Source: Neophaeotheca triangularis
Lineage: Eukaryota
DNA: 64,000 bases
Assembly: GCA_054600435.1 (NCBI GenBank)
Contig: BAAIJX010000082.1
Span: 1-64,000, forward strand
Direction of reading: 5' to 3'
Shown: piece by piece, positions 13,746 to 59,978 of the stretch
Numbering within the stretch: the first letter of the stretch is position 1
Layout of the letters: each line of letters starts with the position of its first letter
The notes under the pieces: generated by a model
Told to the model about the DNA's origin: nothing
The model's input: the letters and a program-made list of their open reading frames with translations, nothing else
The model's database searches: none
Made by a program: the position numbers and the translations under genes

Positions 13746-14910
13746 GTCGCCACAAGACCAAGGCTCGGCGCTGTATACGCAATCGAGGAACGATATCACG
13801 GCTGCTCAAACAGAAAAGGAAACGATTGACAAAGAATCAAACGCAGTATGCAAGGCATTCATCCATTATGCCCAGAAGCTGAGTCTCCTCATTAGCTCTT
13901 CCATCGGCGGCTGCAGAGTAAGTGTTAGACGCTGCTACCCTGGTAACGTGACGGCTCGCAAAAACTCTGCCAGGCACAGCCAGTGTTGCTTCGTTGATTG
14001 GCTTCACAGTTCTTCCCAGCAACCGTCGTTAAGCAAGTTTCGCATGCTTTTTCCTCCCAGCCTGGCTACTATGTATGCGATTGGGGCCTGCCGTGGGTAC
14101 TTCTCCAGCTCCGAAGACGCGAGAACTCTCGCCGAGAACGAGCGGTCTTCTTCTCAGCGTATTTCCAGTCGTCGTTCCTGGCAAGTATCTGCAACAAACC
14201 TGCTTTGTTCTTCCTTCCTCCTCCGGGGGCGAAGTATGTAGTAAGTGCTAGGCCGCCAGTGTACATGTCTGGTCTCCAGAAGGAGGACAATGCCAGAGAG
14301 GGTGGAGTTCTCAAAATGTCACCCATTTTCAAGAATACTCTCGTTTCTTTCTCAAAATACGTGCACTTGACACCGACATCTACAAATTAGCGGAACTGTC
14401 CACGAGCCCTTATGGTAGGTCTGCATTTTGGCTTTTAGGGCTATAAAAACACATTGGGAGGGTCATCGCTCCGCTATACTCCACTCTCGCAGTTCCCCCT
14501 TAATACTTCCGTTCTGCACACTCGACCTGCTCACCTTCTCTTCATCGCTGACAGACGCACCCATTATACCAACCCGAAATACGTCGTGGTGGCTTTCTTG
14601 TCCCTAGTGTTGACCAAAAGCCGAAGTGAAGCTCAACGCTGCTGCTCTCTATGCCCCTGAACAACACTTGAGCACGGCCCCATTTCAACCTCACTACTTC
14701 CTCACCTGGCTGAAAGGTTCTCACTTCTGCCAACGTCATCGGCGTGAATTCGACTGCAAAAGCTCTCAACTTCCAACTCTCCCTTCTCCTTCCAACACCG
14801 CCACCACAACCTCCTCAGCATTAACAACACCACCAACCAAGTAAGACATTCTCAACTATCGTCTTCTACCGCATGTCACTGACAGCATGAAAAGCACACA
14901 ACACAACACT

Positions 14911-15651
14911 ATGCAGTCCGAGAACCAGCCAGGGTCTACGGACACCTCCCGCAGCAGTACTCCCAGACCTCACTCGGGCAAAACGAGCAGCACTAATCCC
15001 CCGGGAGACTCCCCAGAGGCTAGTACCTCATCGCACGCGCGCCGTGCCAGCGATGCCAGTGACACCACTGTCACCGCCCGCTCCGAGGCCGGGGATTCCA
15101 CCGCCTCAATCACCTACCCCGGCGCTCCGGCCAACACCCCCTTCGACGCCAGCAGCGTCGTAGGTTCCGGGTCCTCGGGCCCGGATACCTCGTCGCTCGA
15201 CGCTCGCCTCGCCATCATGGCAATCTCCTCGTCCGCCTCGGACAACTCCTCGGTCGCTGCCGACGGTACGTTCTCTCTCACCTAATCCTGCCCAGGACCC
15301 ACCTTTCCCACTTCACCTCACCCCTTCCCTGCTTTCCCACCCGCAAAACTACCCCAAACAATCGCGTACCACACACTCAGCGAAGAACCCACGCTAACAA
15401 ACCCAACCGCAGACCACCCTCCCAGCAACATCCGCGACGACATCGCAGCCGCCAACGGTGTCAAAGAACACTCGGCATGGGGCGAGGTCGCCATCGAGGA
15501 CCTGGGGCGCAGCCTGGCGCGGCTGACCAGGCTGGCCCAGGACGAGCACTCCCAGGACGGCAGCAAGAGCGTCGAGGAGTACTTCAGCATCCACTTGGCA
15601 GCGATGGTCAAGGCCAATGGGGTACGCTTCGACCCTAAGTATCTGCACTAA
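14911..15651 (+). CDS. Hypothetical orphan-like protein with a Ser/Thr-rich N-terminus; exons 14911-15265, 15413-15651
   Basis: Intron 15266-15412 (GTACGT..GCTAAC..CAG) joins two coding-biased segments in frame, ending ...RFDPKYLH*. A possible 5'-UTR intron starts at 14841 (GTAAGA). TATAAAA near 14442. Confidence 0.6.
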
Positions 15652-16097
15652 GAGCATCATATTCTTTGGTGAGTTTTTGCCTGAGTTGTGAGCAGTGGTG
15701 TAGGTGGCGGTGTGCTGACTCCTGGGTCCAGTGAAGCACATCTACGAGCACTACGGAGATAAGTGAAGACCATGGCGACCTACCGGGACCTGGCGGGTCC
15801 TCAACGGAGTCTACATAGCCGAGGAATGCCGGTTGTGGGTGAAAACCCACAACCGTGACTGCACTGAGGAGCTCTCCCTTTTTTGAGGACAGAGAAATCA
15901 CGAAGCACGAGACAAGGAGTTATTTGAATAGGTCAAGCGAACTTTAGCTGCGATCAGACTGCCGGCGAGCAAATTTCCCCCTTAGCTATATGCACAGAAA
16001 CAGCGAAAGCACGATTAACGAAGCAAACATCACCCACTCCAAACTCCATCGCTAGCCATGATCATGCACATCCCGCAGACAAAAGCCAGTTTCCCCT

Positions 16098-34381: not shown

Positions 34382-36751
34382 ATGGCGACCCTCAAGAGAC
34401 CGCTCGACGACAACTATGTCCCCTCATCGACCCCCGCCTTTGGCACTCCAGCCCATCCCATTCCACCACCACGTCCAGCGCGAGGAAACAGTCCGCCTCC
34501 AGCATTCAAGCCTGCCATTTCCACCATATTGCCCATCCTGATCCCACCGCCAACCTTGAGACCCCTTGCGTTTCGGACTTTCACCAAAAAGCATAATCTT
34601 ACCCTCAACGGCTCAGCTTTGCAAGCACTTGCGACATTCATCGGCCGACATTGTGGATCAGCGTGGCGAGAAGAGGGCACTGGCGAGAAGGTGTTGGACG
34701 AGGTTGCGAAACTATGGAAGGCCGAGTCGGGCCCAGTCATTGTCGAGGACGGTGCCCAACTCAAAGGCATTCTCAAAACCTTGGAGGGATGCATGAGCGG
34801 CGGCAGAATAGGGCAGGTCAAGAGGCAAGGTAGCAATATCAGCAGGCAGAGTGGCTTTGCTTTTGGGAACGAATCAGGTGGTGAATCATCCGGAGTCGGC
34901 GTACGAAGACCTAGCCTGGACAGCAATCGCAATAGCAGCTTTGGCATGAGCGCCCTACAAGTCGAAGAGCAGGACGAGATTGAAGAAGCAAGCAAACAAC
35001 CGAGATCGTGGATCAAGGTCATATCATCCTTCGATCAGCCGCGATTCACCTACAATCTGGACAAGAAGCATTTTGTTCAGATGAACAACAAGCCGTCTTT
35101 TTTCCCGCCACCCTCACACAAGACCGCCATCTTCCGAGAAAGATACAATGTCATACATCAGCGCCTACTACGCAACGAAGCCTTTCAGACGCCTTCCTTT
35201 AGCGCAAGATCGTCGAAACTGACGAGAACAAACAGCACAACCGCTCAGCAGTTCTACAAACTGACTCCGATCGCTAATCTCCTAGGCCGAGGAGGCTCTT
35301 CCCATCTCCTGCTGGGTATGCTAGTCATAGCGCCTACGGGTACACTAGCTTTTGCAGACACTTCTGGCAGCATATCGTTGGATCTTCAACATGCTGCTCC
35401 ATTACAAGGCGAGGATTCCGCCTACTTTTGCCCCGGCATGATAGTCCTCGTGGATGGCGTCTACGAGGAAGACTACGCCGGTGTTGGATCCAGCGGCTTG
35501 GGCAACACCGGCGGGATCGGTGGCACTATTGGAGGCCTCTTTGTTGGTTTCAGCATCGGTGGCCCGCCAGTAGAGAAACGAAACGTCTCACTTGGCGTAA
35601 ATCTCGGTACGACAGACGTAGGTGGTGGTTTCGGGTGGACAGACTTCTTAGGCTTGGGCAGTGAACGAGCAGTAGGACCACGGATGCAAAAACTAGAGAA
35701 GCGGCTACTCGTAGCAGACAGTGCGAGCTCTGAAGACCCCTCCAATAAGATGGTGATTTTCTCGGAAGTCTGCCTAGACGACCCGACAACCCTTTCTGCC
35801 CTCCGCAAAGTACTCGAAATCTACGCAGCATCACCCACACCACCCATGGCGTTCCTCGTCATGGGCAACTTCACAAGCCGCGCCTCCATGGCAGGCGCAG
35901 GCGTCGGCTCAATCGAATACAAAGAACTTTTCAACGAGCTCGCCGTCGTGCTCTCAGACTTTCCCTCCCTCCTCCGCAACAGCACCTGGATCTTCGTCCC
36001 TGGCGACAACGACCCGTGGTCTTCAGCCTTCTCCGCTGGCGCCAGTAGTCCCATCCCCAAACAAGGCGTCCCCGAGCTCTTCACGAACCGCGTCAAACGC
36101 GCTTTCGCAACCGCAAACTCCGAAGCCGGCGTCAGAGACAAGGACACGATCGAAGGTCAAGCCATCTGGACGACTAACCCGGCTCGTCTCAGCCTCTTCG
36201 GCCCGCAACACGAAATCGCCATTTTCCGCGACGACCTCGCAGGTCGATTCAGGAGAAGCGCGGTGCGCGTTGGTAAAGCCAGCAACAGCACCACCACCAC
36301 CACCACCAGCAACACCCCCGAAGAACCCCCCCAAGACAGCGCCCACAACCCCCAACCCCCGGACACAGAAATGCTCGACCCAGACGCCCTACCGACAACC
36401 GAAGAAATCCAACCCCCCGGCCCCACCCCGGAAACCCACGCTCTCGCGCAAGCGAAAAAACTCATCCTCTCCCTCCTGCCGCAAAGCACTCTCTCCCCCT
36501 TTCCCCTCTCCCTACGGCCCATGCACTGGGACTACGCAACCTCACTATCCCTGTATCCGCTACCGCATACGCTTGTTCTCGCGGATGCGGGGAGCGCGGC
36601 TTTCGCTCTGACGTTTGAAGGGTGTCACGTTGTGAATCCCGGACGATTGGTAGCAGGGGCCGGCAGTAGGGGGAGGAGGCGGAGGGTGCAGTGGGCGGAG
36701 TATGATCTTGTCGGCAAGAGGGGGCGGGGGAGGGGGGAGTGGATTGGTTAG
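34382..36751 (+). CDS. DPB2: DNA polymerase epsilon subunit B, single exon
   Basis: LRPLAFRTFTKKHNL, FRERYNVIHQRLLRNEAF, FCPGMIVLVDG, IFVPGDNDPW, WTTNPARLS, WDY..SLSLYPLP, VVNPG. Confidence 0.96.
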   Translation: MATLKRPLDDNYVPSSTPAFGTPAHPIPPPRPARGNSPPPAFKPAISTILPILIPPPTLRPLAFRTFTKKHNLTLNGSALQALATFIGRHCGSAWREEGTGEKVLDEVAKLWKAESGPVIVEDGAQLKGILKTLEGCMSGGRIGQVKRQGSNISRQSGFAFGNESGGESSGVGVRRPSLDSNRNSSFGMSALQVEEQDEIEEASKQPRSWIKVISSFDQPRFTYNLDKKHFVQMNNKPSFFPPPSHKTAIFRERYNVIHQRLLRNEAFQTPSFSARSSKLTRTNSTTAQQFYKLTPIANLLGRGGSSHLLLGMLVIAPTGTLAFADTSGSISLDLQHAAPLQGEDSAYFCPGMIVLVDGVYEEDYAGVGSSGLGNTGGIGGTIGGLFVGFSIGGPPVEKRNVSLGVNLGTTDVGGGFGWTDFLGLGSERAVGPRMQKLEKRLLVADSASSEDPSNKMVIFSEVCLDDPTTLSALRKVLEIYAASPTPPMAFLVMGNFTSRASMAGAGVGSIEYKELFNELAVVLSDFPSLLRNSTWIFVPGDNDPWSSAFSAGASSPIPKQGVPELFTNRVKRAFATANSEAGVRDKDTIEGQAIWTTNPARLSLFGPQHEIAIFRDDLAGRFRRSAVRVGKASNSTTTTTTSNTPEEPPQDSAHNPQPPDTEMLDPDALPTTEEIQPPGPTPETHALAQAKKLILSLLPQSTLSPFPLSLRPMHWDYATSLSLYPLPHTLVLADAGSAAFALTFEGCHVVNPGRLVAGAGSRGRRRRVQWAEYDLVGKRGRGRGEWIG

Positions 36752-37327
36752 TAAGTGGGCGGGGCGGGAGGGTTCGTTTGGGTTTCCGAGGGAGCGGAGG
36801 TTGGGATGGAGTTCAAGGACGCGTGCATGGTCCGTCGGCGCCAGCCCTGTATGTCTCGGTGGGAAAACATTACGGCGAGCTATGTACTCTCGAACCGATC
36901 TGAAAACGTCTGAGGTCTTTGCCCTGTCATGAAAAAGGCCGATGGGATGCTGGTTGATGCGGATGTCTTCGTGCAAGAAGAATCCGCGCCAGAGAAGATA
37001 GCACCTGATACTACTCCCTGATGTTCGACATTTGATTGTTTTGCTGTGAACGTGTGCATGATACTATGTACGCGGTTCCCCCTCGCTGAGAAATGACCCA
37101 AAGGCTGTTGAATGTAGCCACGCTTTTCGAGCATTGACGGTAATGGGCCCCGGAACAGGTCAAGCCGCAGGAGGATAATCAGTTCTGCTCTTCGTGTTGT
37201 TCAGACACTGGCAGTGCGAATTCGACAGGAAAACATCCCGTGGCCAACGACGAAGAAGTCTTGTAGAGTGCACCGGTAGCGAGAGATACCATGGAACACA
37301 AGGTGACAACATAAAAACAAGACGAAT

Positions 37328-38006
37328 GCACCGTGAGAGAAAAGTAGAGATCAAAATATAAATCCGGCGCTCCCAAAAGAACGGGAGAGCGCGCAAAATC
37401 TCTCATATTTGCGCGGTGCTACAAAAACACAAGCGGAATTGCAGCAGCGCGACTACTAATGTTTTTGTAGACGCAGCAGAAAGCAAAAAACAAAAAAAGC
37501 CCAGCAAAAGCCTTCCATTCCCTTCCCTCAGCCCGCAAGCACGAACACTCACACCCCAACAATGTCTTAAATCGATTGATTGTCTAGCGGTAGGTATCGC
37601 GCCGGCAATGCGAGATGGAATGTTGAAGCCATCTCTCCAACGCCTTCGCTAAATTCGTCAGATCTTGGAACCTTTCTTTTTCTTTGGGTATAAAAAAGAC
37701 TCCCTCCCAAAATGTTGTAGTTTTTGTTTCGCCAATTTCGCGGGCATTCGGGGGAAGGAGCCCGCCTGAAAGTGTGACGGACTCGTACTCCCGATGCCTC
37801 ACGAGACCACTCAGGGTCTATGTTGAATAACGCTTCACTCCTTTTCTAGCCCTGAGTTGTTCCTTTGGGGGGGGGTATCATCTGTCCGCGCGCAGAATCA
37901 TGCTTCATAGAGGGTTTATGCTTTTAAATTCGCCGTGTAACGCCGTGGAAATGAGGATGCGCTCGTTGCTCCTGGGAGCAGGCGCTAGACTACCTGAGGA
38001 TAGTCT
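37328..38006 (-). promoter_or_regulatory. Candidate structured 3'-UTR element of the SAM synthetase mRNA (hairpin array)
   Basis: About nine inverted repeats of 6-11 bp within ~680 nt directly after the stop codon. Several use G-U pairs on the mRNA strand. See findings. Confidence 0.55.
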
Positions 38007-39309
38007 TAAAACTTGAGGGTCTTGGGCTTCTCCCAGTTGAAGTCCTGGTTGGTGAAGTGGCCGTTCTTCGCGGTTTGGCAGTAGATGGGCTTGATGAGGT
38101 CAAGCTCCTTGACAATGACACCGGGGCGGAGATCGAAGTTGTTACGGATGATCTGGACAAGCTCCTCGGAGGACTTGTTCGAGGTGCCGTAGGACTCGAC
38201 GAAGATGGACAGGGGCTCGGCGACACCAATGGCGTAGGAAAACTGGACCAACGCACGGCGGCAGAGTCCGGCCTTGACGAGCGACTTGGCGACCCAGCGG
38301 GCGAGGTAGGCAGCAGAGCGGTCGACCTTGCTGTAGTCCTTGCCGGAGAAAGCACCACCACCGTGGGCACCCCAGCCACCGTAGGTGTCGACGATGATCT
38401 TACGGCCAGTCAGACCGGCGTCACCCTGGGGTCCGCCAATGATGAAGAGGCCAGAGGGTTGGATCTAGCGGGAAACGATTAGCGGAAATGCGATCAAAGT
38501 ATCACTACATTCTATACAACTTACGTGGTAGACGGTCTTGTCGTCGAGGTACTTGGCAGGGATGACCTTCTTGACGATCTTCTCCAAAATCTCCTTGCGG
38601 AGGAACTCGGTGGTTATGTCCTCGGCGTGCTGAGCACTGACGACAACGGTGTCCACTCTCTTGGGGACAACGGCACCACCATCGTGCTCGTACTCGACGG
38701 TGACTTGGGTCTTGGTGTCAGGCCTGAGCCAAGGGATGCTGCCGTCGTTGCGAGCGTCGGTCATGGCGCTGTTGAGCTTGTGGGCGAGCTGGATGGTGAG
38801 CGGCAGCAACTCGGGGGTCTCATCAGAGGCATATCCGAACATGATACCCTGGTCACCGGCTCCGAGCTTCTCGAGGGCCTCCTCGTAGTGAAGACCTTGG
38901 GCGATATCGGGGCTCTGCTCCTCAATGGCAACAAGGACGTTGCAGGTCTTGTAGTCGAAACCCTTGTCGGAGCTGTCGTAGCCAATGTCCTTGATGGTGT
39001 TACGGATGATCTTCTGGTAGTCGAGCTTGGCCTTGGTGGTGATTTCGCCAAAGATCATGATCATGCCGGTCTTGGTGGCCGTCTCACAAGCAACCTTGGA
39101 GAGGGGGTCTTCCTTGAGGCAGGCATCGAGGACGGCGTCGGAGACTTGGTCGGCAATCTTGTCGGGGTGACCTTGTCCAACAGACTCGGAGGTGAAGCTG
39201 GAGGGGGGGATGTCAGTGAGAGAGGCTTTGGTTGGGAGTAGTAGTAGCATGGTGGGACGCACAGGAAAGTGTTGCCCTTGGGCGTGCCGTTGACTGCTCC
39301 GGAGACCAT
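38006..39309 (-). CDS. SAM2: S-adenosylmethionine synthetase; exons 39309-39263, 39197-38525, 38464-38006
   Basis: [75 protein letters not shown]. Strong codon bias. Confidence 0.98.
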
Positions 39310-40755
39310 TGTTGTGATTAGTGAGCGAAGGTGGTGGTGGTGGTGGTGGTGTTGGTGAGGAGGAGGGTGATGAGGGTGTTGGTGGTGGAAGGAATTGAGT
39401 TGGGAGGGGTGGATAGAGTGTAGAAAGAGAGAGGTTGGTTGGGGAAGGGAAGGTCAGGTCAGGTATGAACAATGCTAAAACAAAAGCAGAGACACACCCC
39501 ACCACGACATTTGCCGAGAGATTGAAAGCTGGCGAGTCGCCTGTCGCACTGTCGGCCCATCAAAAAAACCTCCTGCTCCTGCTCCCACGCTCTCAGTCGC
39601 TCACCTTCCGCCCCGAGCCCCACTTGACAGGAACAAACGGAGCACGTCATCCGATCCCCCGACCTCAGCCGGCTTCCACCTCAATAATACTGCAAAGATA
39701 CTACTATCCATGGATATTACTATAGGCATGTGCTCTTTCACCCTCGATAGCTCCTCCGCCGCAAGGTGAACTGAGGCAGTTGTACTAGAAGAGACGTTCA
39801 ATGGGAACGACAGCAGCAACAACTTCAAGTCTCAAGTGTTAACGTCTCGGGATCACCATCAGAATAATAACACCAGTAGACTTCGGCCTCAACTAGCCAG
39901 CTTGGCCATGCCCTAGCACCGGTATCAATGCCTACCTACCTACCTAGGTAGATAGCTACCTGCACCAGCCGCGCTCACAGCTCTTATTACCAGCGATCGT
40001 CTTCGCCTTTGACTACGTCTAGGCCAGGCGAGATGAAAACACTTGCTCATATTCTAGCTATCCCAGTTTCATCTACGACACTCAACGTTGAAAGCAGCGA
40101 CGCCAAACCAGGTCGGACTGAATATTTCGGACTACTTTAGGCCACTCGATATGCGAATCTCGAAGGAGAATGCTCGCAACAGTCATTGACGAAGCGAACC
40201 AGTAGGAAGGCATTTATGATGGAGCCATCATCCTCTTTCTCTGTCTCTCTCCCTCTCTCTCTCTGTCTCTCTCTCTCTTCGTCTAGTAAATCGGTCAGCT
40301 AGTAGTCGAGACGGCGCGTATCTGCTTCCTTTCCCGCATCTTAGGGTTCGGGTTTGAGAATTACACATAATTGCCCACCGGTCATCAATGTGCACGTGGC
40401 GATCCTCGCGACGGGTCCCGATAGCTACCTACCTAGATAGGATGTTTAGAACGTTCTCCCTAGCTATACTACTACTACGTCTTGAGAATGCGAGAACTTG
40501 CCTCGACCGGAGACCTCTTTTCAATCGCTAGGTTTAACGCGTCCGCAATGATCCTAGCGAAAGAAATAATGCATTGAATCTACTACTAAGGGGTTCGTCT
40601 TTAACATAAACTTCCTAATACTTGGAATAATGTACTACTGTTTACGAATTAACGATGAATCAGCGGCATATGCACGGCCAAGAATGAACCCGTTACTAGA
40701 AGTGTCAGGGTCCAATATTTGTACAAGCTTAAGACATGTCGTGGCTGAAGTCAAA

Positions 40756-51664: not shown

Positions 51665-53836
51665 ATGTCACGTCTTCAACCGGCCTACGACATCATCACC
51701 GGCGCCGAGCTGCCTCCAGCCTCGCACGCCGCAACCTCCGTCCGGGAACCATTGCGCGAAAGCCAATGGAAACGAACGACCACCAACGGCGCCAGCAGCA
51801 GCGGACACTCCTTTGCGGAAGAAGAACTTCGCGGCCAGCTCAACACACTGCAATACGAACTCGACGCGCTGAAACAAGAGCGCGACCTCCAAACCCACTC
51901 GCAGCAGCGCGAACTCCAGAACGCGCAAGCTCGCGCCGAAGCGGAAACAAAGCGCGCCTCTGCGGCTGTGCAGGAACGTGAGGCCGAGAAGGAGAAGGTC
52001 GAGAAGATTCGGCGGCAGTGGACGGAGAGCTCGGATCGGTTGGAGAACGAGAAGGGGGTTCTGGAGAAGAGATGTAGGGGTTTGGTGAACGATGCGAGGG
52101 GGTTGCGGGAGGAGTATGAGGAGGCGAGGGAGGAAGTGGAGAGTTTGCGCAGGAAGAGTGAGAGGGAGTATGGGGAGTTGGAGCGCAGGAATCGGGGGTT
52201 GGAAGCTGCAGTGGAGGAGGTTACAAGGGATGTGGAGGGCAAGGTCAACGCGTTGAGGTTGGCGCAGGAGAGGTTGAAGGTTGCCGAGGAGAGGGTTGAG
52301 GTGCTTGAGGGGGAGGTTGTGGGGTTGAGGGGAAGAGCAGGGGATGGGGATGCGTTGGAGGTTGTGAGGCGGGAGTTGGAGGGCGAGAAGGGGGAGGTGA
52401 GTAGATTGTATGAGGAGAGGAGGGGGCTGAAGAGGGATGTGGAAGTTCTTAGGGAGAGAGCGCAGGGAGCGGAGATGTTGAGGCAGGAGTGCGCGGAGTT
52501 GCGAGCGAGGGTTGAGGGGTTGGGTGAGGTGGAAATGGAGTTGAGTAATGTGGTTAGGCGGAAGCAGGCACTTGAGGATGAGCGGGCTGCTTGGGCTTCG
52601 TACATGGAAGAGGAGGGTGAAGGGCAGGCTATGAACTACGAGACTCCTGAGGAAATGGCGCGTGCTTTTGCGAAGGAGCGGATTGATAGGATCAATTTTG
52701 CTGCCAAGCTGGGTGCTGTGCAGCCGGAGCTGGAAAGCAGAGAGCAAGCCTTGCAAGAGCTGAGGCGTGAACAGGAGAGACTGATCTCTGAGCTTGAGGT
52801 GGCTAAGACTGCTGGAGTTGAGAGCACTACGGCCATTCCTGCACCCACAGTCGCCTTCGACGCCAAGGCAAAGACCCGGCTGGAAAAGCAGAAGAGGCTT
52901 GCTTTGAAAGAAGTCGAGCACCTCCGCCAGCAGATCAAGGAATTTGACATGGACGAAGAAGAGAAAGATGCCGCCCAACCCGAAGACGCAAAAGCGAAGC
53001 GTATCGCCGAGCTTGATGACCTTCTCGGCGAATACCGCGAGGAGCTGCAAAAGCTCCACAGCGACCTCTCACAGCTCGAGACACAACAGCCAGCTAACAT
53101 CAAAAAGCGTAGTCACGAGGAGGTCGAAGACCCAGAAGCAGACGAACAACGCGGCGAGCTGATCCGCCGAGCCCGCGCCCTGCAAACCGAGCTGGAAGCC
53201 GCGCAGCAACAAACTCAAACCCTCCAAACCGCCCTGGAAGCTAGCAATACCCAACTAGCCCAACTTCGCGAGAGCTCCAAAACCCGCATCCTCTCCCTCA
53301 AAGACAACCCCACCTCTCGCGCCGAAAGCGTGAAACTCGCAACCCTCACGACCCTGCGCGAAGAAAACGCCGCTTTGCTGGCCCAACTCGAAGGCAACCT
53401 GACCACCAAAGTCGTCCCCATCTCCACTCTCCAAGACTCTCAACACCAAACCGAAGCCGTACGTGGCGACCTCGCCACAGCAGAAAAGAAACTCCTCCGC
53501 CTCAAGCAAATCTACACTTCCAAATCCCTCGAGTTCCGCGAAGCCGTCGCTTCCGTCCTCGGTTGGAAACTGGATTTCCAACCCAATGGCCGCGTCAAAG
53601 CGACGAGTATTCTGTATCCTTCGCGCATTAATGCTGACGGTGAGGAGGAAGAGAACAGTATTGTTTTTGATGGCGAGAACGGGACTATGAAAGTTAGTGG
53701 GGGCGCCAGGAGTGAGTTTGCGCAGGAGATTCGGAGTAGTGTGGAGTTTTGGGTCGACGGGAGAGGGGAGGTGCCGTGCTTTCTTGCGGCTTTGACGTTG
53801 GAGTTTTATGAAAGGACTACTAGGGCTGTCGGGTAG
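51665..53836 (+). CDS. MAD1: Spindle assembly checkpoint protein Mad1
   Basis: Long coiled coil, Mad2-binding region TRILSLKDNP, RLK motif (KLLRLKQIY), EFREAVASVLGWKLDF, C-terminal PCFLAALTLE. Confidence 0.93.
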   Translation: MSRLQPAYDIITGAELPPASHAATSVREPLRESQWKRTTTNGASSSGHSFAEEELRGQLNTLQYELDALKQERDLQTHSQQRELQNAQARAEAETKRASAAVQEREAEKEKVEKIRRQWTESSDRLENEKGVLEKRCRGLVNDARGLREEYEEAREEVESLRRKSEREYGELERRNRGLEAAVEEVTRDVEGKVNALRLAQERLKVAEERVEVLEGEVVGLRGRAGDGDALEVVRRELEGEKGEVSRLYEERRGLKRDVEVLRERAQGAEMLRQECAELRARVEGLGEVEMELSNVVRRKQALEDERAAWASYMEEEGEGQAMNYETPEEMARAFAKERIDRINFAAKLGAVQPELESREQALQELRREQERLISELEVAKTAGVESTTAIPAPTVAFDAKAKTRLEKQKRLALKEVEHLRQQIKEFDMDEEEKDAAQPEDAKAKRIAELDDLLGEYREELQKLHSDLSQLETQQPANIKKRSHEEVEDPEADEQRGELIRRARALQTELEAAQQQTQTLQTALEASNTQLAQLRESSKTRILSLKDNPTSRAESVKLATLTTLREENAALLAQLEGNLTTKVVPISTLQDSQHQTEAVRGDLATAEKKLLRLKQIYTSKSLEFREAVASVLGWKLDFQPNGRVKATSILYPSRINADGEEEENSIVFDGENGTMKVSGGARSEFAQEIRSSVEFWVDGRGEVPCFLAALTLEFYERTTRAVG

Positions 53837-57121: not shown

Positions 57122-59978
57122 ATGGCAACATACTCGGGCTACGCGCTTCCCACCTCCGGCGCTCCTCCAATCCGCAGTCATGGCCACAGTCGTTCATACC
57201 ATGGCGGCCACCTCTCGCCAGCCAAAGGAGGCTCGAACGGCAGCAACGGCAACGGCACCCTTCATACCGTCCTCGAGACCAGTCCGGTTCACTCGCCAGA
57301 CACCGAAGCGAACAGGCAGATTGGCGAGAACAACTTCGCGTTCAACGAGAACAAGAGGCTACACACACACTCGCACAGCCATCCGCCGCCAATGAAGAGT
57401 AGAGGTAGAGGGGAGTCGGATTTAGGAAGGCCGCCTGATCCTCGCGGCAATGCGTATGCGCCGCACTTGACTGCTGTACACAATGATCACGACCATGGAC
57501 ACGAGCATTCTCACGAATCGCGACGTATGTTCCCAGAACTCTTGACTGGGCTACTCATACCGCTTCCCTATATGCTTGCCTCGGCCGCCTTTCCAAGGAC
57601 GGATGTGTCGAAGACGGACGATTTGCAGGAAGACATACCTTTGGAAGAGGTGGAGCCGTCAGCCGTAGGTCAAGACAGAATATCTGCACTGGCTAGAGCA
57701 TGCACGTTGACCGCAGGAACTTTGCTGCTAGTCGGTGTCGCAGCCAAGATCAAACAATCTCAGAAAGTGCTGGATCGACGGAAGGATATAAGCTCGTTGC
57801 CACAGCAGGCGAGCGCGATGTTGACAGGGCCCACGTTGCAGGCCATGGCGATGAGAGTAGCTTCTGTAGGCCTGCCATTTTACTCCGCATTGGAGCTTGG
57901 AGGGTTGAGAGTGGGCCTCGCTCTGGTGACCGCAGTGACGTCGAACATTCTCTGCAGCGATAAGAGCCACGGGTCAGCTCTTCGCCAGTGGAAACAATTC
58001 CTGTCGTCTCGGAGAGGCACCCTGGCTGTACTAGTCAGTGGAATGCTCGCCGACTTCTCAGGCTTGACCACAGACGCGTCGTTGTCAACCCTCCTCGCCG
58101 GATACTTTGCTTTGAGTGGCACCATCTTTGTCCTGCAATACCCCCTGCCCAAACCTGCGGGATCGCGCTCTCATGAAAGAAGCTCGTCATCAGCTCCTTT
58201 AGCTGTCTCGTCCTTGGTGGCTACTAAAGGCGACACCAATATTACGCTGACTGCGGGTGCTGTCCTGAGCGTGCTCACTCTCATCGCCTCATTCGCACTT
58301 ACTGGAGATGCCATTTCCACTTCCAATATGGTATTCGCCATGATCTCCATCTCCCTAATGGCGACAACACTCTTCGTTTCCCGACCTACCACCTTACGCA
58401 GCCAAGGAAAAGCTGGCCTTGGTCTTGGCTGCCTCCTTTCCGCGAGCTGCGCATTTCTCTTCTCCCCTAATATTTGGCCGAGCACCATCATCAACGGTGG
58501 CCTTTCAGCATTGGTGTTTCTGGGTGTACTCTACGATACCACTTCTACGGGCAGACATACACATCACAGCCACGAGCACAACCACGACCATACACACCAT
58601 GTACATTCTCACGATCACGACCACAGCCATAAGCTTGACTTCAACAATACGATTGCCCACCTTCACGGTCCTAGACCTGTTCAGCCTGAGCATTCCATGT
58701 TTACACACTTGCTCATGATGAGATGTGAACCGGGTTCTTTGGTATCCGGTATCCTGAGCGATAAGGATTCGCGAAGAATCGCCTACTTTACCTGGTGAGT
58801 CTTGATCATGATTGTCGAAAAAGAAAGCTCCCTTGCTAACAATCGTCCAAAGCCTCAACTTCGGATTCATGCTTGTCCAAGGTGTTTACGGGTACCTTTC
58901 CGGCTCGCTCGGTCTACTGAGCGACACTGTACATATGTTCTTCGACTGCCTCGGCCTGGTCATTGGTTTAGGAGCGGCAGTGGCGAGTAAGTGGCCCACG
59001 AGCCCGGAGAAACCTTATGGATGGGGTAAGTTGAACACTCTTGCTGGTTTTGGCAATGGCATCTTCCTTATGCTCGTGAGCGTGGAGTTTGTCTGGGAGG
59101 CAATGGAGGGTATCATGGAGGGCAAGGAGTTGCGACGAGTGCAAGAGCTGCTTGTGGTTAGCACTCTTGGTTTACTCGTTAACATGGTTGGACTGTTCGC
59201 TTTTGGCCACGCACACCATGGACATGATCATGGCCATGGTCACGGGCATGACCACGGACATGGCCACGGACACGACCACGGGCAGGGCCATTGCGATGAT
59301 CACAGCCACTCGCATGGCCACGACCACAACCATTCCCATTCCAACGGACACGCCCACGGCGATCACTGCAATCACTCCCACGACCACAAAGCCACAACAT
59401 CTCACTCGCACGACGCCCACGCCCACGCCCACAACGAGAACATGCACGGCATCTACCTACACGTCGCAGCCGACGCCGGCGGCTCTCTCGCTGTCATCAT
59501 CAGCACGGCCCTAACCCTCTGGAAACCATGGTACCTCTGGGACCCATTAGCGACGATCCTAATCGCAGCCCTGATCTTCGTGGCGGCCGTGCCATTGGTC
59601 ACATCGTCTGGTCAGAAACTCCTGCTCGTGATCCCCGACAAATACGAGTACGGGATGAAGAACGCCCTCCAAGAAATCGCCGAAATCCGCGGGATAGTGG
59701 GCTACGCGGTTCCACGGTTTTGGATCGATGATAAAGATGCCGGGGGCGGTGGTGGACACCATCATCACCACCATGGGCACGATCACGGCGAGGAGGCGGG
59801 TGCTGTGCAGGTTATCTTGGGGGTCATTCACATTATTGCCGGGCAGGCGGCGGATTTGGAGGATGTGAGGCGCAGGGTTGAAGACTTTGTGCGGGAAAGG
59901 GGGATGGATGTTGTGGTGCATGTTGAGCATGAGGGCGAAGGGTGCTGGTGTGATGGGGGCAAGGGGAGGTCTTTTTAG
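57122..59978 (+). CDS. Cation diffusion facilitator zinc transporter (Msc2/Cis4/ZnT5-like), His-rich; exons 57122-58794, 58853-59978
   Basis: Extended N-terminal TM region, then DSRRIAYF|LNFGFM.VQ.VYG..SGSLGLLSDTVHMFFDC, YGWGKL.TLAGF.NG, a His-rich loop and NMHGIYLHVAADAGGS. Confidence 0.92.

Follow-up and report, generated by a model that had tools for sequence, protein, structure and literature searches.

The 3′ untranslated region (UTR) of the S-adenosylmethionine (SAM) synthetase gene of the fungus Neophaeotheca triangularis holds a deeply conserved, covarying RNA element that is specific to SAM-synthetase 3′ regions, in which the invariant heptamer UUCAACA sits in hairpin loops whose stems vary between fungi. 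The stretch of DNA analyzed, hereafter called the window, comprises 64,000 nt (contig BAAIJX010000082.1 of assembly GCA_054600435.1, positions 1 to 64,000), and SAM synthetase is encoded on its minus strand at 38006–39309; the introns and relatives likewise mark the DNA as fungal. A preliminary description of the window had drawn nine hairpins (H1–H9) at 37328–38006, immediately downstream of the coding region, and had taken the array as a candidate RNA element of SAM homeostasis. The candidacy stands in that the region is conserved, covarying and specific to the 3′ side of SAM-synthetase genes, but the signal is carried by H3 and H6, and the decisive loop word UUCAACA had been overlooked.

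Relatives were collected by searching metagenome contigs with the last exon of the gene (152 amino acids); the best 80 of 490 (84–92% identity) were taken, and 1300 nt were cut downstream of each stop codon, yielding 71 3′ regions of at least 400 nt, which were reduced to 52 non-redundant ones, the window included, with their transcription being assumed. The most widespread 7-mer among them is TTCAACA, found on the sense strand of 52/52 3′ regions and on the antisense strand of 3/52. Over all loci, 181 sense copies (3.75 per kb) and 5 antisense copies are present in 48.3 kb of 3′ regions, as compared with 32 copies on both strands of 605 kb elsewhere in the loci (0.053 per kb, about the random rate), an enrichment of about 70-fold over the surrounding DNA. 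No enrichment was seen outside the SAM-synthetase 3′ regions in these 605 kb, a check that extended about 3 kb to either side of each locus and over the 64-kb window, where the 15 heptamers of both strands together form no second cluster. All seven positions are strict: in the 31.9 kb of the 52 UTRs, the sense strand contains 128 exact copies of UUCAACA and at most 11 of any single-base variant, the commonest being CUCAACA (11 copies; the other position-1 variants have 4 each), and the seventh base is A in the 128 exact copies versus another base in 22 in total. The base before the heptamer is U, A or C (G in only 5/147), and the base after it is U or A in 132/147 and C in only 10/147. Two copies per UTR are the commonest arrangement (31 UTRs), followed by three (14), four to six (4) and one (3), so that 49 of the 52 UTRs have at least two, with the first and last copies lying at median distances of 140 and 315 nt past the stop codon.

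The heptamer is accompanied by the words GGCGTT (40/52 sense, 3 antisense), GATACC (33/52 sense, 2 antisense) and CATAGA (33/52 sense, 4 antisense), and GGCGT is located within 28 nt upstream of the heptamer in 41/68 cases. In the relatives, the usual order is GGCGUU, GAUACC, hairpin 0, hairpin 1 (AUUCAACAUAGA) and GGCGUU together with hairpin 2, often with GAUACC again. Three relatives (L012, L013 and L019) have five or six heptamer hairpins about 60–370 nt past the stop codon, such as AGAU-UCAACA-AUCU, indicating that the heptamer array is enlarged by repeats in some lineages. A reading of AACAUAG as a splice signal was considered and rejected, as the second motif is without AG and the branch-site word of fungi differs from the heptamer. 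A putative occurrence of the heptamer near the 5′ end of fungal 5.8S rRNA was considered as well and set aside.

The heptamer is displayed in hairpin loops, mostly of 8–12 nt, and the stems enclosing it are diverse, such as GAGAUGG/CCAUCUC (window), GAGAA/UUCUC, CUCUG/CAGAG, GUCU/AGAC, GCGCUUUG/CAAGGCGC and AUGGAGGG/CCCUCCAU. In an arm-swap test on 147 distinct copies, the stems averaged 4.60 bp, versus 3.05 ± 0.12 bp with swapped arms (z 12.7, reached in 0/2000 permutations); stems of at least 5 bp accounted for 41%, versus 15% after swapping, and 37 different innermost 5-bp stems were counted among the 60 hairpins of this class. Partition-function folds of the 52 UTRs gave the heptamer an unpaired probability of 0.70 versus a background of 0.40, with the flanks paired. 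In the window itself, the heptamer of H6 is predicted to be unpaired with a probability of 0.5–0.9 per base, and the first three bases of the copy in H3 are predicted to be paired.

A covariance model (R1) was constructed from 19 sequences, with a 7-bp stem specified by hand, for the motif-2 element, in which a GGCGUU box is followed by the hairpin corresponding to H6. At E values up to 1, the model gave 43 matches in 419,638 nt, 40 of which are on the sense strand of SAM-synthetase 3′ regions; the sole match in the 64-kb window is 37605–37645 on the minus strand (39.8 bits, E 2e-8), a sequence that had served as a model seed. The other three matches (L016:1584–1614, L030:2092–2122 and L031:1097–1142) are weak (13.8–14.4 bits, E 0.4–0.6) and may be due to chance; they precede the last exon on the sense strand and could belong to the 5′ part of the gene. 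On the alignment fitted by the model, which leans towards the structure, 78% of the cells pair and double changes are found in 7/7 pairs; the double-change cells amount to 49 versus 18.5 ± 4.9 in shuffles (0/500), and the covariation score is 0.472 versus 0.256 in shuffles (0/500) and 0.145–0.259 in slid controls. A plain MAFFT alignment of this element had its stems out of register and gave no structure with RNAalifold, and the alignment by the covariance model and the arm-swap test were therefore used instead. In addition, single-sequence folds of most relatives predict a closing stem (P1) around H6, which would pair the GGC of the GGCGUU box.

Conservation of the individual hairpins was judged on an alignment of the window UTR with its four closest relatives (five sequences). 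Proceeding on the minus strand from the stop codon TAA (38006–38008), H1 (37987–38006), which overlaps the stop codon, and H2 (37959–37985) are present but do not align, and are followed by a GGCGUU box (37939–37944), invariant in the five sequences, and a GAUACC box (37874–37879). The conserved H3 (37809–37857) carries the first heptamer copy (37821–37827) inside AUUCAACAUAGAC; its block GUGAAGCGUUAUUCAACAUAGA is nearly invariant among the closest relatives, and its outer stem is kept in 4/4 sequences with three compensatory pairs. Within the 5′ arm of H3 lies ACAACUCA (37853–37860), the only remnant in the window of a third hairpin type that has the loop UUUUCAACAACU in other fungi. H4 (37743–37798) is a lineage-specific insertion, gapped in all four closest relatives, and H5 (37683–37711), which does not align, is adjoined by the one-mismatch heptamer copy UACAACA (37713–37719), a word rare in the relatives (4 sense, 0 antisense). 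Alignment is regained at UUUAGCG (37647–37653), just upstream of the conserved motif-2 element (37605–37645), which consists of a second GGCGUU box (37639–37644) and then H6 (37612–37635, GAGAUGG/CCAUCUC, loop CUUCAACAUU), with the heptamer at 37621–37627 and a stem that covaries across the relatives. A second GAUACC box (37593–37598) comes next, and GGCUUUUGC (37504–37512), the start of a U-rich stretch, is the last block to align; the alignment breaks down 3′ of it, and H7, H8 and H9 with their proposed closing stem (37328–37470), a part of which lies under RNA contigs, have no counterpart in it. BLAST of the window UTR against the relatives gave only two short common blocks, about 37795–37838 and 37612–37655, both with TCAACAT.

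Only H3 and H6 are therefore conserved, whereas H1, H2, H4, H5 and H7–H9 are lineage-specific, and the array as it had been drawn is not a conserved unit, the parts kept being H3, H6 and the GGCGUU and GAUACC boxes. The seven lineage-specific hairpins may only add stability or may have no function. A further exact UUCAACA is found on the minus strand at 37106–37112 (context CAUUCAACAGCC), about 900 nt past the stop codon and outside the cover by RNA contigs; its presence could be due to chance, or some transcripts could extend further.

All nine hairpins fold at the positions where they had been drawn, H4 being the most stable (−29.1 kcal/mol on the minus, or mRNA, strand versus −26.2 kcal/mol on the plus strand). 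The earlier remark that the imperfect pairs of H1, H4 and H7 are G–U on the mRNA strand and A–C on the opposite one fits the higher minus-strand stability of each, which is −7.9 versus −5.9 kcal/mol for H1 and −16.7 versus −15.0 kcal/mol for H7; the conserved H3 folds at −18.8 versus −13.4 kcal/mol. For the whole of 37328–38006 (679 nt), the minus strand gave −233.1 kcal/mol against −207.4 ± 6.9 kcal/mol for dinucleotide shuffles (z −3.71, 0/100 as good), whereas the plus strand gave z −0.61 (26/100 as good). A scan of the window with 200-nt windows at 100-nt steps on both strands (25 shuffles each, 1278 windows) had a background mean z of −0.08 with a standard deviation of 1.16, in which 37701–37900 and 37601–37800 of the minus strand rank 6th and 7th (z −3.70 and −3.59); among spans of 700 nt, 37201–37900 of the minus strand is 2nd of 1268 and the plus strand at 37301–38000 is 214th. 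The claim of unusual structure in this 3′ region is thus borne out for the mRNA strand. The part of the array with H7–H9 and the stem proposed to close H8/H9 as a multiloop does fold as described, but, besides lacking conservation, its fold signal is not strand-specific (37301–37500, z −2.70 on the minus and −4.16 on the plus strand), so that these hairpins behave like a DNA palindrome cluster. An origin of the hairpins from a repeat or transposon was rejected, the UTR having no second copy anywhere in the window. Stronger folding was observed on the minus strand at 58.7–59.8 kb, where 59101–59300 gave the top signal of the window (z −5.9, 200 shuffles); the segment 58700–59800 is rich in CATG/GGCCATG repeats and has the appearance of repetitive coding sequence, not of an RNA element. 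Further 700-nt spans with a mean folding z below −1.7 occur at 51900–52800 (minus) and 14700–15700 (plus).

The transcribed state of the region was assessed with contigs from four marine or aquatic metatranscriptome runs (four studies), placed on 35500–39800; such contigs give neither the RNA strand nor the true 3′ end. The last exon (38006–38464, minus), whose translation matches Pfam S-AdoMet_synt_C (E 1.9e-66), is preceded by an intron (38465–38524, minus) that is spliced out in an RNA contig with the joint 38464/38525. Contig X3 (37863–38119) spans the stop codon, X2 covers 37351–37928 with two differences and a 4-nt deletion, X1 contigs cover 37396–37645 and 37720–37929, and contig X6 from a poly(A) library covers 37944–38207. 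As the contigs run from the coding region across the stop codon as far as 37351, the 3′ region is transcribed with the mRNA, and the minimum extent of the 3′ UTR is about 655 nt (37351–38005, minus). The adjacent 36752–37350 is without RNA contig cover, an absence that does not indicate a poly(A) site; the convergent neighboring gene, a homologue of DNA polymerase epsilon/alpha subunit B on the plus strand, ends at 36751, about 1250 nt separating the two stop codons.

Strain variants in the RNA contigs are few. The change 37465 T>C converts an A–U pair of H7 to G–U, keeping the pairing on the mRNA strand only, and two others fall on unpaired positions, namely 37449 G>A (H7 loop) and 37967 T>C (H2 bulge); a 4-nt deletion at 37679 is seen in one run, and both heptamers (37821–37827 and 37621–37627) are without reported variants under thin contig cover. 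One X6 contig from the poly(A) run (depth 3.9) joins 37681 to 37873, skipping 191 nt (37682–37872) that contain H3 with the first heptamer copy, H4 and most of H5. The ends of the skipped segment are not GT..AG on the mRNA strand, and the direct repeat AUACCC, part of the GAUACC-type boxes, is present on both sides; the skip could be a strain deletion, a jump of reverse transcriptase across a structured stretch, or an unusual processing event.

The loop word of the element coincides with the published recognition loop of Nep1/Emg1, and on this ground the hairpins are read as mimics of an rRNA site. Nep1 is a SAM-dependent pseudouridine-N1 methyltransferase of the SPOUT class, which binds uridine- and pseudouridine (Ψ)-containing RNA about equally. 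Yeast three-hybrid experiments (PMC2853112) defined the consensus 5′-C/UUCAAC-3′ for ScNep1, bound in vivo within hairpin loops or internal bulges; this consensus occurs three times in 18S rRNA, one occurrence including the hypermodified Ψ1191, and the 18S site oligonucleotide used for the human and yeast enzymes is GACUCAACACG. The word CUCAACA in that oligonucleotide is the UTR heptamer in its C form, including the A at the seventh position. In the crystal structure of the ScNep1 dimer with one or two stem-loops bound (PMC3064781), every base of the UUCAAC loop is contacted and C is tolerated at position 1. Of the features of Nep1 sites that can be followed in sequence, the UTR hairpins have the consensus, the C/U alternative and the presentation in a loop; of the 3′ context in 18S rRNA, the A after CAAC is nearly invariant and the C that follows it is present in only 10/147 copies. 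The predominance of two copies per UTR fits the dimeric enzyme with its two RNA sites. A genetic connection to SAM is also on record: the temperature-sensitive nep1-1ts mutant is rescued by added SAM or by overexpression of SAM2, which encodes SAM synthetase (PMC2275143), and the rescue by SAM holds even when Ψ1191 cannot be made (PMC3045603).

The UTR hairpins may well be substrate mimics or decoys of the 18S Ψ1191 loop that are bound by Nep1/Emg1, with the SAM state of the enzyme, or its availability outside pre-ribosomes, setting the fate of the mRNA, a reading that we regard as tenable though somewhat short of probable. Transcription, conservation, strand and gene specificity, presentation in loops and covariation of the stems are shown by the data above; the binding factor, any SAM response and the direction of the effect are inferred, the link to SAM from the nature of the host gene and from the match to the Nep1/Emg1 motif. 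In the predicted mechanism, Nep1/Emg1 would bind the UTR hairpins, one per subunit, possibly joined by other factors acting on the 18S Ψ1191 loop; its residence or tightness on the UTR would depend either on the binding of SAM or on the amount of Nep1 that is free from pre-ribosomes, and its occupancy would then determine how the SAM-synthetase mRNA is processed in the nucleus, how stable it is or how well it is translated, with either a stabilizing or a destabilizing outcome. The logic would be the one established for MAT2A, whose hairpins imitate the U6 site of METTL16. We further speculate, as a rather doubtful extension, that filamentous fungi evolved rRNA-substrate decoys on SAM-synthetase mRNA independently of vertebrates, through which Nep1/Emg1 might read SAM supply or the demand of ribosome synthesis; the pseudouridylation guide and the acp transferase of the rRNA site may join, and a natural mRNA might thereby receive m1-pseudouridine.

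Several points weigh against the involvement of Nep1. The enzyme methylates only pseudouridine-containing RNA (PMC2853112), a conversion of the UTR uridine to pseudouridine being hypothetical; it is described as nucleolar and as acting on pre-rRNA, with no mRNA target of Nep1 and no SAM feedback at the RNA level in fungi being on record in the literature searched. The UTR loops are mostly longer, at 8–12 nt, than the 6-nt loop of the crystallized RNA, and the base after the heptamer, which is C in 18S rRNA, is C in only 10/147 copies. A match to a 6-nt consensus could be a coincidence, and this one was found by literature search after the motif had been seen; moreover, the GGCGUU and GAUACC boxes are unexplained by Nep1, and the comparison covers the 80 closest of the 490 relatives.

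The same conservation, strand-specificity and covariation data apply equally to a conserved post-transcriptional element read by another sequence-specific RNA-binding protein, for instance one of the KH or RRM type controlling this abundant mRNA in its stability, localization, translation or 3′-end formation, whether or not SAM is involved; we hold this to be possible, if distinctly less than probable. Such a reader is needed for the GGCGUU and GAUACC boxes anyway, and the three separate conserved words, with GGCGU near the heptamer in 41/68 cases, suggest several factors or a multi-domain reader. In addition, the motif AAUACCY listed for the yeast protein YLL032C (PMC3561878) is similar to the GAUACC(C/A) box. 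However, only Nep1 surfaced with UUCAACA specificity in the motif searches of the literature, this reading would leave unexplained why the word is identical to the 18S rRNA site, and the element was present on no other gene within the 605 kb of flanking DNA, which speaks for a function specific to this gene. A reading without any RNA-level function, in which the stems are chance structures or DNA palindromes and the words act on DNA, for example as terminators or promoter signals of the neighbors, would accommodate the lack of conservation of seven of the nine hairpins, the equally good folding of H7–H9 on both strands and the inability of the contigs to give the RNA strand. We consider it very improbable as a whole, and for H3 and H6 it is hard to hold against the sense-to-antisense ratio of the heptamer (181 to 5) and the covariation of the stems around an invariant loop; the RNA contigs run on from the coding region without a break, and the neighboring gene is convergent, with 600 nt beyond its stop codon being without a contig.

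Two further readings were considered. The UUCAA core might imitate the tRNA T-loop (T54-Ψ55-C56-R57-A58) as a substrate of Trm6/Trm61 (m1A58), Trm2 (m5U54) or Pus4 (Ψ55), the SAM-dependent ones of which could act as sensors. It fits the UUCRA of the GUUCRA motif at the m1A sites made by TRMT6/61A in mRNA, hairpins mostly with 7-nt loops (10.1101/202747), and the bases at −1 and +1 of the heptamer can pair in 75/147 copies versus 56.3 expected. The details nevertheless render this T-loop mimicry improbable, since G at −1 occurs in only 5/147 copies and a G–C closing pair in 0/147, a 7-nt loop on a stem of at least 4 bp is formed in 3/96, positions 6 and 7 (C and A), variable in T-loops, are invariant here, and ARAGORN detected nothing resembling a tRNA, either in the window or in 55 loci. 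A protein-free riboswitch for SAM or S-adenosylhomocysteine (SAH), which would be the second riboswitch class in eukaryotes, is suggested by the gene, which in bacteria is the most frequent target of SAM riboswitches, and by several conserved single-stranded words that could form a pocket. We judge it extremely unlikely because the loop word is repeated one to six times at variable spacing, with variable stems and box order, a pattern characteristic of protein sites rather than of a single ligand pocket, and because no match was found in Rfam at E values up to 10 for the locus or at gathering scores for the whole window.

The search of Rfam 15 covered 36500–39700 at E values up to 10 and, with 0 matches, the whole window at the gathering score; the best matches below threshold, none of them meaningful, were 6A RNA (26 bits, gathering score 41.2) and ZFAT-AS1_2 (17 bits, gathering score 70). 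The 6A RNA match lies at 37457–37509 on the plus strand (E 0.066), opposite to the mRNA strand, and is taken as chance. The METTL16 nonamer UACAGAGAA, which had been said to be missing from this UTR, is indeed found 0 times on either strand of the 52 non-redundant 3′ regions, window included, and the reader of the element must hence differ from METTL16. MAT2A-type hairpins are reported not to exist outside vertebrates, and Schizosaccharomyces pombe sam1 is reported to be without hairpins of the METTL16 nonamer type and to be unchanged in mtl16-delta (PMC8163875), a result that says nothing for or against Nep1. Nothing relevant to the heptamer or to a UTR element of SAM synthetase was found in the searchable full texts, most subscription journals being outside their coverage. 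Conserved fungal structures have been reported in the 3′ UTRs of MET13, GLY1 and thioredoxin (PMC8216456), and the SDC motif in the 5′ UTR of SAM decarboxylase (PMC5640933); a SAM-synthetase element is absent from Table 1 of the former and from the lists of the latter as far as they are accessible.

The strictly conserved, gene-specific element makes directly testable how fungi hold SAM, the universal methyl donor, at a set point post-transcriptionally: there are seven letters and two hairpins to aim at, along with a candidate reader for which crystal structures, mutants and a SAM-related genetic interaction exist. If the reading with Nep1 is true, two kingdoms would have converged on substrate mimicry by SAM-synthetase mRNA, the production of SAM would be tied to ribosome biogenesis, and an essential rRNA enzyme would gain a second, regulatory RNA target. 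Even without Nep1, the element is a new and widespread fungal RNA motif with strong statistics, suited to RNA family libraries, and may provide a handle in pathogenic and industrial fungi.

The element is worth comparing with the systems already known. In vertebrate MAT2A, the 3′-UTR hairpins hp1–hp6 are read by METTL16 and mimic its site on U6 snRNA (PMC10578476, PMC8163875). Common to both are the location in the 3′ UTR of a SAM-synthetase mRNA and the presence of several hairpins sharing one invariant loop word; if the Nep1 reading holds, the word would in both cases be a copy of what a SAM-dependent methyltransferase recognizes on a stable non-coding RNA, which is U6 snRNA in one and 18S rRNA in the other. 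The fungal word is, however, UUCAACA instead of UACAGAGAA, the copies are mostly two or three instead of six, the GGCGUU and GAUACC boxes are additional, no detained intron is known, and the candidate reader is a different one. With the Nep1/Emg1 site of 18S rRNA (the m1acp3-Ψ1191 loop), the UTR hairpins share C/UUCAAC in a hairpin loop, the A next to it and C as the alternative at position 1, but they are on an mRNA and not on pre-rRNA, have longer loops and continue with U or A rather than C. In Caenorhabditis elegans, sams-3/4/5 are controlled by METT-10 through a 3′ splice site inside the gene that carries a METTL16-type word. The proposed likeness to this case is a feedback on SAM synthetase at the RNA level through a SAM-dependent RNA methyltransferase, whereas the fungal sites are 3′-UTR hairpins with another word. 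Bacterial SAM riboswitches in metK leaders are likewise cis-acting RNAs on a SAM-synthetase gene, but are situated in the 5′ leader, bind the ligand directly and adopt a single defined fold, and the present element has no match among the Rfam families. Finally, the MET13 hairpin, compared here by description only, is limited to Debaryomycetaceae/Metschnikowiaceae (PMC8216456), and the MET13, GLY1, thioredoxin and SDC structures all resemble the SAM-synthetase element in being small covarying UTR structures of fungal metabolic genes, with MET13 itself belonging to the methionine cycle.

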